From Thermomicrobiales bacterium (GTDB lineage Bacteria; Chloroflexota; Chloroflexia; Thermomicrobiales; JALYUS01): 31,724 nucleotides of DNA. The notes below the pieces were generated by a model that saw only the letters and a program-made list of their open reading frames with translations, made no database searches and had not been told where the DNA came from. Where the stretch lies: NCBI GenBank assembly GCA_038238655.1, contig JBBSFO010000001.1:1-31724 (forward strand). Direction: 5' to 3'. Positions 27,175-28,083 of this stretch are shown here, piece after piece. Both the position numbers and the translations under genes were made by a program. Positions within the stretch are counted from its first letter, which is position 1, and every line of letters begins with the position of its first letter.

Positions 27175-28083
27175 GTGACCGTCAGTTTCGGACATATCAA
27201 TGTGCAACTCGGCAAAGAATTGCTCCAGGTCGTGCCGCTGAACACGCCGGTGATCACGATCGGTCGCGGGCCGGATAACAGCCTCACGCTCGCCCACCAA
27301 CTCGTCTCGCGTCACCACGCGGAAATTCGCCTCGATGGCGCGCAACCGACCCTGATTGATCTCGGCAGTTCGAACGGTACCTTGTTGAAGGGCGTGCGAC
27401 TGCTGCCGAATCAGCCGATGTTGCTCGCAATCGGCGATGCCTTTCAAATTGGCCCATTCTCGATGATTTACCAGGTTCCGGACCAGCGCTTCGACACCGA
27501 ACACGCCTTGTTCGTCGAGTTGGACCAACCGGCGTATATGCTCGACGCCTCAGTCACCTCCCCTACACCGATCATGCCCCGTGCAAGTTATCGGCCAGTG
27601 TTCACGCGCGATCGTCCGAGTACATTCCTCCCTAATCTACCGATCATCTTCCAGGAGAACTCGTTCTTCGAGCGGTTCCTGATGATTTTCGAATCTATCT
27701 GGGAGCCATTGGAGCAGCGGCAGGACCACATCCACATGTATTTCGACCCGCGCACCTGCCCCCCGGAAATCCTCTCCTGGCTGGCGTCGTGGCTTGACTT
27801 GTCCGAAACGCAGCACTGGCCGGAAGGCCGGAAGCGGCGGTTTTTCGCCGAGGTCATTGACCTGTATCGTTGGCGGGGCACACGGTACGGCCTCGAACGG
27901 ATCATCGAAGTGTGTACAGGATATGTTCCACGGATCACTGAATTGCCGAATACGCCGTTTGTGATTGATGTTTCCGTGACACTGCCGCCCGACCATGGCG
28001 CAGACCGGGCGCTGATCGAGCAACTGATTCTGACGCACAAGCCCGCGCACATCGGCTTTCACCTCACGGAGCGGACGTCATGA
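27175..28083 (+). CDS. FHA domain fused to P2 gpI-like baseplate (phage tail protein I) domain, 302 aa
   Basis: N-terminal FHA with intact TIGR, VSRHH and DLGSSNGT motifs (about 27220-27470). C-terminal FLPNLPIIFQ..FFERFLMIFESI...YFDPRTCP...LSWLASWL...WPEGRKR...LYRWRGTRYGL...LILTHKPAH (gpI-like). Confidence 0.92.
   Translation: MTVSFGHINVQLGKELLQVVPLNTPVITIGRGPDNSLTLAHQLVSRHHAEIRLDGAQPTLIDLGSSNGTLLKGVRLLPNQPMLLAIGDAFQIGPFSMIYQVPDQRFDTEHALFVELDQPAYMLDASVTSPTPIMPRASYRPVFTRDRPSTFLPNLPIIFQENSFFERFLMIFESIWEPLEQRQDHIHMYFDPRTCPPEILSWLASWLDLSETQHWPEGRKRRFFAEVIDLYRWRGTRYGLERIIEVCTGYVPRITELPNTPFVIDVSVTLPPDHGADRALIEQLILTHKPAHIGFHLTERTS

Follow-up and report, generated by a model that had tools for sequence, protein, structure and literature searches.

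An FHA domain fused to the baseplate wedge protein Cis12, encoded beside a membrane kinase, in a Streptomyces-type contractile injection system of Chloroflexota

Contig JBBSFO010000001.1 of the Thermomicrobiales bacterium assembly GCA_038238655.1 carries a contractile injection system (CIS) in which the baseplate wedge protein Cis12 is fused to a forkhead-associated (FHA) domain. The contig was analyzed over its whole length of 31,724 nt and is called the window below. The FHA domain keeps the residues for phosphothreonine (pThr) binding, and the fusion gene is directly followed by a gene for a membrane Ser/Thr kinase of the Hanks type. We give a probability of about 55% to the reading that the two proteins form a phospho-switch, similar to the PpkA/Fha pathway of type VI secretion systems (T6SS). 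In this switch, binding of pThr on a putative ligand would tie the baseplate to the membrane kinase. The kinase gene occupies the slot of CisA, a membrane protein of the Streptomyces system. The original prediction for this gene had reached a similar view. It is supported in part. Its description of the fusion, the baseplate slot, and the adjacent kinase stands, and the fusion is conserved; the co-occurrence of fusion and kinase rests on about two evolutionary events.

In the 302-aa fusion protein, Pfam placed an FHA domain at residues 27-93 (E 4.7e-19; 69 bits, cut-off 20.7), spanning the full model (1-67 of PF00498), and Tail_P2_I (PF09684) at residues 176-290 (E 8.9e-14; 52 bits, cut-off 20.6). 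The canonical pThr-binding signatures are all present in the translation: G30-R31, S45-x-x-H48, and N67-G68. The Pfam search and direct reading thus agree with the original prediction that an intact set of GR, SxxH, and NG motifs is joined in one open reading frame (ORF) to a P2 gpI-like domain. The position of the start codon agrees with all aligned homologs. The gene had been placed in the slot after baseplate J, and it does lie there; the gap of 23 nt from Baseplate_J contains GGAAGGG, a motif like a ribosome-binding site. The predicted overlap of its stop codon with the kinase start, in an ATGA, was also read in the sequence, and the kinase gene is translationally coupled to the fusion gene. 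An Rfam scan of the region found no RNA family.

The two halves of the protein are also distinct in structure. An AlphaFold2 model built on 115 homologs showed a confident FHA sandwich, with a predicted local distance difference test (pLDDT) score above 90 for residues 11-100. Residues 105-131 were disordered (pLDDT below 50), and the Cis12 core was helical/beta with pLDDT of about 70-90. Foldseek matched the N-terminal part to the FHA domains of GarA, OdhI, FhaA, and EmbR, with template modeling (TM) scores up to 0.91. For the FHA domains of GarA, OdhI, and FhaA, the TM scores were 0.8-0.91 and the root mean square deviations 1.7-2.2 Å. The G30-R31, S45/H48, and N67-G68 residues align to the equivalent residues of GarA. 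By score, fold, and loop residues, the domain is assigned to the canonical pThr-binding class, and pThr binding is predicted.

The C-terminal part matched the Streptomyces coelicolor baseplate entry 9gtp in Foldseek. The Cis12 family profile hit S. coelicolor Cis12 (9gtp_E, 190 aa) with E 3.8e-22, and the single sequence hit it with E 1.4e-10. The pyocin protein Tri2 (PA0619) was only a weak profile match to the Cis12 core (E 2e-3). Residues 154-259 of the fusion align to residues 22-127 of S. coelicolor Cis12. The FHA domain and the linker are therefore an N-terminal addition of ~150 residues to an ordinary Cis12. The linker varies in length among homologs and forms a gappy stretch of a 27-sequence alignment.

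The fusion is widespread. A protein search yielded at least 756 homologs (protein clusters), and both domains are present in all among the matches listed. Their names suggest Thermomicrobia, Chloroflexaceae, Roseiflexaceae, and Ktedonobacteraceae. In a genome scan, 113 loci with the fusion were detected, mostly in Chloroflexota, including the cultured Thermogemmatispora, Oscillochloris, Candidatus Viridilinea, and Kouleothrix/Roseiflexus lineages. It was also observed in metagenome-assembled genomes (MAGs) labeled Gemmatimonadota, Deinococcales, Acidobacteriota, and others; these labels may reflect gene transfer or binning errors. Among the viral contigs of IMG/VR, no relative of the fusion was found. 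In the 27-sequence alignment, G30, R31, and H48 are invariant, and the G-R-S-H residues are near-invariant across about 45-50% sequence divergence; the FHA domain keeps the pThr-binding residues throughout the family. Public annotations call the homologs only "FHA domain-containing protein" or "phage tail protein I". Literature searches turned up no description of a CIS baseplate protein with an FHA domain, nor of a CIS outside T6SS that is linked to a kinase.

The Pfam scan of ORFs revealed a complete CIS operon on the + strand of the window. The operon encodes a BTAD regulator, two cap-type proteins of the Pvc16_N family, an Afp15-like AAA ATPase, and a methyltransferase-TPR protein. It also encodes three DUF4157/eCIS_core proteins, a sheath, three gp19-type tube proteins, and a tube-LysM initiator. 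Its other products are a VgrG-like spike, PAAR, gp25, Baseplate_J, FHA-Cis12, and the 970-aa protein kinase. The order VgrG-PAAR-gp25-BaseplateJ-(FHA)Cis12 is seen in the window and in essentially all related loci. No fiber-like Pfam family was recognized in any ORF of the window. The Baseplate_J protein matches S. coelicolor Cis11 over its full length (PDB 9gtp_1K, E 2.1e-138), and the best PDB match of the sheath is the S. coelicolor CIS (8bky/9gtp, E 3.4e-174). By gene content and sequence, the locus is classified as a fiber-less CIS closest to the cytoplasmic CIS of S. coelicolor, which belongs to subtype IId of the extracellular CIS (eCIS). The Chloroflexota system is probably cytoplasmic as well.

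This kinship indicates how many FHA domains a particle would carry. The S. coelicolor baseplate wedge consists of two Cis11 and one Cis12 (PMC12237407), and PDB 9GTP holds 6 Cis12 chains and 12 Cis11 chains. Given the homologous baseplate, six FHA domains per particle are expected, and each particle would carry six tethered pThr readers. The sixfold display had been part of the original prediction, and the Cis12 position of the protein is consistent with it.

The downstream protein is a 970-aa kinase whose catalytic elements are intact: the Gly-loop, K41, D140 of HRD, and D167 of DFG. Among its homologs, K41 and D167-x-G169 are invariant, D140 is found in 43/46, F168 in 39/46, and the activation-loop T180 in 34/46. 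The kinase domain must lie on the cytoplasmic side, which makes the protein bitopic with an N-terminus in the cytoplasm. It has an FHA domain of its own, in which S402 is found for the pThr-binding Arg (Arg in 34 of 46 relatives) and Y438 for the Asn (Asn in 33 of 46). This second FHA domain is degenerate; thus, the only canonical pThr reader in this locus is the FHA domain of Cis12. The Gemmatimonadota-labeled kinases have no FHA domain of their own. Complex prediction with the unphosphorylated kinase (residues 1-500) and Cis12 (residues 1-145) gave a score of 0.00; the proposed contact is phospho-dependent, and this score speaks neither for nor against it.

In S. coelicolor, the CisA gene directly follows the baseplate genes, in the tail-fiber slot of extracellular CIS (PMC12237407). 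CisA is a bitopic membrane protein with its N-terminus inside; contraction in situ requires it, and it was proposed to touch the baseplate (PMC12237407). The kinase can be regarded as the positional and topological analog of CisA. With the Streptomyces-type placement, which the original prediction had not made, and the kinase in the CisA slot, a role in intracellular docking or triggering is the natural reading.

Linkage between fusion and kinase was counted over 62 fused loci that have 1.5 kb or more of sequence downstream. In 42 of these loci, the kinase starts within 150 nt, mostly with a 4-nt overlap, as here, or a 1-nt overlap; in 55, it lies within 8 kb. In a sample of 401 Chloroflexota genomes, 34 had a Cis12 match, fused and FHA-less together. 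Fifteen apparently FHA-less loci were fetched. Thirteen (L089-L099, L101, and L102) were truly FHA-less, and none of the 13 has a downstream kinase domain. Among loci with enough flanking sequence, 53 have both the FHA domain and the kinase, five have the FHA domain without the kinase, 12 have neither, and none has the kinase without the FHA domain. The membrane kinase partner named in the original prediction is thus retained in 53/58 informative fused loci and absent from 12/12 informative FHA-less loci. This pattern is one ancient acquisition, retained over deep divergence, and not a statistically independent association.

The gene layout differs among lineages. In Chloroflexaceae-type loci, the gene next to FHA-Cis12 encodes an FHA-Ig-DUF11 membrane protein, and the kinase gene comes after it. 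An example is a Chloroflexaceae MAG (L016:5060-8725), where FHA-Cis12 is followed by a protein of 1221 aa that carries FHA, Ig-like, CARDB, and four DUF11 domains, and then by a kinase-FHA-Ig protein. This layout indicates that the reader/anchor and the kinase can be separate polypeptides. In L046, L047, L053, L054 (Deinococcales-labeled), and L073 (Oscillochloris), FHA-Cis12 is the last gene of the operon, and the available downstream sequence (up to 8 kb) showed no kinase. The Oscillochloris genome of L073 has a second locus, L035, with a kinase, which could act in trans. In several FHA-less loci, the downstream proteins begin with Ig-like (FixG_C/NEW3-type, NPCBM_assoc) domains, the same as those in the cytoplasmic part of the kinase. 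This suggests that the Ig-like membrane protein is the older CIS partner and that the kinase and the FHA domain were added later.

In the proposed mechanism, a signal would reach the extracytoplasmic Ig-like domains of the kinase and cause Thr autophosphorylation or phosphorylation of a substrate. The pThr bound by the FHA domains of Cis12 would belong either to the kinase or to some other substrate in the membrane or the CIS. Binding would bring the baseplate to the cytoplasmic membrane, or license it there, to assemble or fire; the effect could be activating or inhibitory. The data suggest that phosphorylation may set the place or the time of docking or firing. A narrower version, in which the ligand of the FHA domain is the autophosphorylated kinase, is possible but tentative. 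We are similarly hesitant about a further version, which is close to the original prediction. There, the six tethered FHA domains would replace fibers as the receptor-binding apparatus, the receptor would be the phosphorylated cytoplasmic part of the signal-sensing kinase, and an extracytoplasmic cue would, by way of Thr phosphorylation, lead to membrane docking and firing of a cytoplasmic CIS.

Several observations weigh against a phospho-switch between baseplate and kinase. S45, at a phosphate-contacting position, is replaced by Ala, and only in Chloroflexaceae-type sequences. N67 varies outside Chloroflexota, and the Deinococcales-type FHA domain has Lys there. Five fused loci have no kinase within reach: two labeled Deinococcales, one labeled Chloroflexota, one from Kouleothrix, and the second locus of Oscillochloris. 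In the Cis11 tree, the FHA state changes only twice. With only two independent contrasts, the co-occurrence of FHA domain and kinase reflects common descent and has no statistical weight. No TxxI/L/D docking motif is conserved in the kinase linker, where the Pro/Thr-rich sequences are unalignable. A semi-conserved linker Thr of Cis12 (PRPT; Ser in the window) shows no pattern of covariation with the state of the kinase's own FHA domain. Four Thr residues, Cis12 T194, Cis11 T293, VgrG T215, and kinase T610, came out of a scan for those conserved in the FHA-bearing clade alone; these candidates are inseparable from ordinary clade differences and are leads only. No PP2C phosphatase is encoded among the ORFs of the window. 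The only PP2C_2 match of the genome is on a different contig (C2), and no PP2C was seen after the kinase in three relatives, which were inspected by ORF layout only.

There are other explanations. Like GarA on PknB, the FHA domain may dock on the activation loop of the kinase in its phosphorylated form, and the kinase would then phosphorylate the Ser/Thr-bearing Cis12 linker or baseplate neighbors. Phosphorylation of CIS parts, and not membrane docking, would then regulate assembly or contraction. The closest solved FHA relatives, GarA and OdhI, are both kinase-docking substrates, and TagH of T6SS binds pThr and is also phosphorylated by TagE (PMC13584744). The Cis12 linker holds 9 Ser/Thr in 50 residues, and T180 in the activation loop of the kinase is conserved, as described above. 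However, the linker is poorly conserved, and the PRPT position, Ser in the window, is occupied by Glu, Ala, or other residues in other loci. A conserved acceptor site was not found, and the clade-specific Thr residues are no better than leads. Substrate recruitment of this kind is unlikely. A checkpoint for cargo or assembly is improbable. In this case, the FHA ring would bind pThr on a CIS protein, such as the 2061-aa DUF4157 protein in the tape-measure position or a DUF4157 effector, and kinase activity would be tied to cargo loading or tube initiation. The window does encode three DUF4157/eCIS_core proteins, one of them very long, of low complexity, and just upstream of the baseplate genes. 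The long protein is, however, conserved in related loci only over its C-terminal ~300 aa, its long N-terminal part being lineage-specific, and nothing ties it specifically to the FHA domain.

The FHA fold could also be a phospho-independent module for protein-protein contact or ring building, like the FHA-like cytoplasmic domains of YscD/PrgH in the type III secretion system (T3SS), with the kinase acting on another target. The FHA region has a secondary Pfam match to Yop-YscD_cpl (E 4.9e-10), and the S45A replacement, the altered N67 in some lineages, and the five fused loci without a nearby kinase would fit such a scaffold. The canonical FHA model nevertheless scores far higher (69 vs 40 bits), and the G-R-S-H residues have stayed near-invariant despite the divergence of the family. 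To our knowledge, the FHA-like domains of T3SS do not keep these residues. The kinase is also never found beside FHA-less Cis12 genes. We consider a pure scaffold quite improbable. Finally, separate FHA and Cis12 genes could have been joined by misassembly of the MAG, by a sequencing error, or in annotation. The MAG that the window comes from, as one entire contig, has 969 contigs and 6% contamination. However, hundreds of independent assemblies contain the same single ORF, complete chromosomes and cultured strains among them. The search by domain architecture and neighborhood thus excludes an assembly artefact for practical purposes, and the chance that one explains the fusion is minute. The phospho-switch between baseplate and kinase remains the reading we prefer.

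The coordinates of the fusion gene, its parts, and its neighbors are given in Table 1. The 2061-aa ORF lies just upstream of the tube-initiator gene. BLASTP between the cytoplasmic Ig-like region of the kinase and the divergent membrane protein at the left edge of the window showed no significant similarity.

Table 1. Positions of the FHA-Cis12 fusion, the kinase, and other features in the window
Feature	Position	Strand	Details
FHA-Cis12 fusion gene	27175..28083	+	GTG start, 302 aa plus stop, single ORF
FHA domain	27175..27474	+	Residues 1-100; Pfam FHA, AlphaFold2, Foldseek to GarA
pThr-binding residues	R31 27265-27267; S45 27307-27309; H48 27316-27318; N67 27373-27375	+	
Flexible linker	27475..27609	+	Residues about 101-145 (~45 aa), Pro/Ser/Thr-rich
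Cis12 / P2 gpI-like baseplate wedge core	27610..28080	+	Residues about 146-302; Tail_P2_I
ATGA stop/start overlap	28080..28083	+	FHA-Cis12 TGA 28081-28083, kinase ATG 28080-28082
Bitopic membrane Ser/Thr (Hanks) kinase, 970 aa	28080..30992	+	Pfam Pkinase E 1.1e-44, FHA E 2.8e-11
Kinase domain	28113-28898	+	Residues 12-273; followed by Pro-rich linker
Degenerate FHA domain of the kinase	29274-29468	+	Residues 399-463; followed by two Ig-like domains
Transmembrane segment of the kinase	30240-30308	+	Residues ~721-743; sole hydrophobic segment; followed by Ig-like domains and Pro/Ala tail
Cis11 / Baseplate_J wedge subunit, 665 aa	25154..27151	+	Pfam Baseplate_J E 2.1e-14
DUF4157/eCIS_core protein	7770-10145		Likely cargo or effector
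2061-aa Ser/Thr/Pro-rich low-complexity ORF	15735-21920		eCIS_core/DUF4157 at residues 1804-1880
DUF4157/eCIS_core protein	31168-31722		Likely cargo or effector; starts right after kinase, cut by contig end
Divergent membrane-protein gene at left edge	3-1448	-	Weak PD40 beta-propeller and C39-like peptidase matches

In Roseiflexus (L064:7923-9587), a PKMT-like protein methyltransferase is encoded between FHA-Cis12 and the kinases. In the window, a different methyltransferase gene, with Methyltransf_28 and TPR domains (5978-7609), adjoins that of the AAA ATPase. These CIS may be connected with a second modification, protein methylation.

It is an open question how fiber-less CIS of the cytoplasm reach the membrane and what sets the time of firing. 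CisA is the sole factor known in Streptomyces, and that it touches the baseplate is unproven. The pairing of a membrane kinase with a baseplate subunit that contains a putative pThr reader offers a concrete molecular hypothesis, which is testable by point mutants. The module is present in hundreds of genomes, including those of culturable Chloroflexota. If the phospho-switch is true, phospho-control of contractile machines is not confined to T6SS. In the version with FHA domains in place of fibers, a threonine phosphorylation switch similar to that of T6SS would have arisen independently in Chloroflexota and would be hard-wired into a structural subunit. Such a module could possibly serve as a switchable docking device for engineered CIS.

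Each part of the fusion has known relatives. The closest solved FHA relatives are the GarA/OdhI-type proteins (PDB 6I2P, 6I2Q, and 2KFU; profile E 1e-16), with identical pThr-binding residues and the close FHA fold noted above. GarA and OdhI are, however, small metabolic regulators with an N-terminal phospho-acceptor tail, whereas the FHA domain here is N-terminal itself and is followed by a baseplate domain. The C-terminal part resembles wedge proteins of the P2 gpI, R-type pyocin Tri2, and T4 gp7 class in its Tail_P2_I domain and in its slot after the gpJ/gp6-like subunit. The phage and pyocin wedge proteins have no FHA domain and operate with tail fibers.

The S. coelicolor system (CIS-Sc) is the closest relative of the machine as a whole. 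The structural gene set and its order are the same, and the best PDB matches of Cis11, the sheath, and Cis12 are all from CIS-Sc. In both systems, the tail-fiber gene is absent and a gene for a bitopic membrane protein with its N-terminus inside directly follows the baseplate genes. The differences lie in the two proteins discussed here. S. coelicolor Cis12 has 190 aa and no FHA domain, whereas the protein in the window is ~150 residues longer at its N-terminus. CisA has a disordered N-terminus and a substrate-binding-like C-terminal domain (PMC12237407), unlike the Hanks kinase with FHA and Ig-like domains that holds the slot here. No kinase is mentioned for the S. coelicolor cluster (PMC12237407).

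T6SS has a threonine phosphorylation pathway made up of the membrane kinase TagE/PpkA, the FHA protein TagH/Fha1, and the phosphatase TagG/PppA; TagH binds pThr of TagE (PMC13584744). In Agrobacterium, Fha binds Thr-phosphorylated TssL. Both contacts promote assembly or firing (PMC13584744, which cites Mougous 2007 and Lin 2014). The locus in the window is similar in that a membrane Hanks kinase and an FHA protein, here a predicted pThr reader, are encoded inside the gene cluster of a contractile machine. In contrast to the FHA protein of T6SS, which is a free scaffold, the reader is covalently fused to a structural wedge subunit. The gene set is of the eCIS type, with two Pvc16_N caps, an Afp15-like AAA ATPase, gp19-type tubes, and DUF4157 proteins. 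The PP2C phosphatase is not in the cluster of the window, and the host lineage is Chloroflexota. The system would thus work like the T6SS threonine phosphorylation pathway without being a member of it. It joins two known kinds, a Streptomyces-type CIS and a T6SS-style control by threonine phosphorylation.

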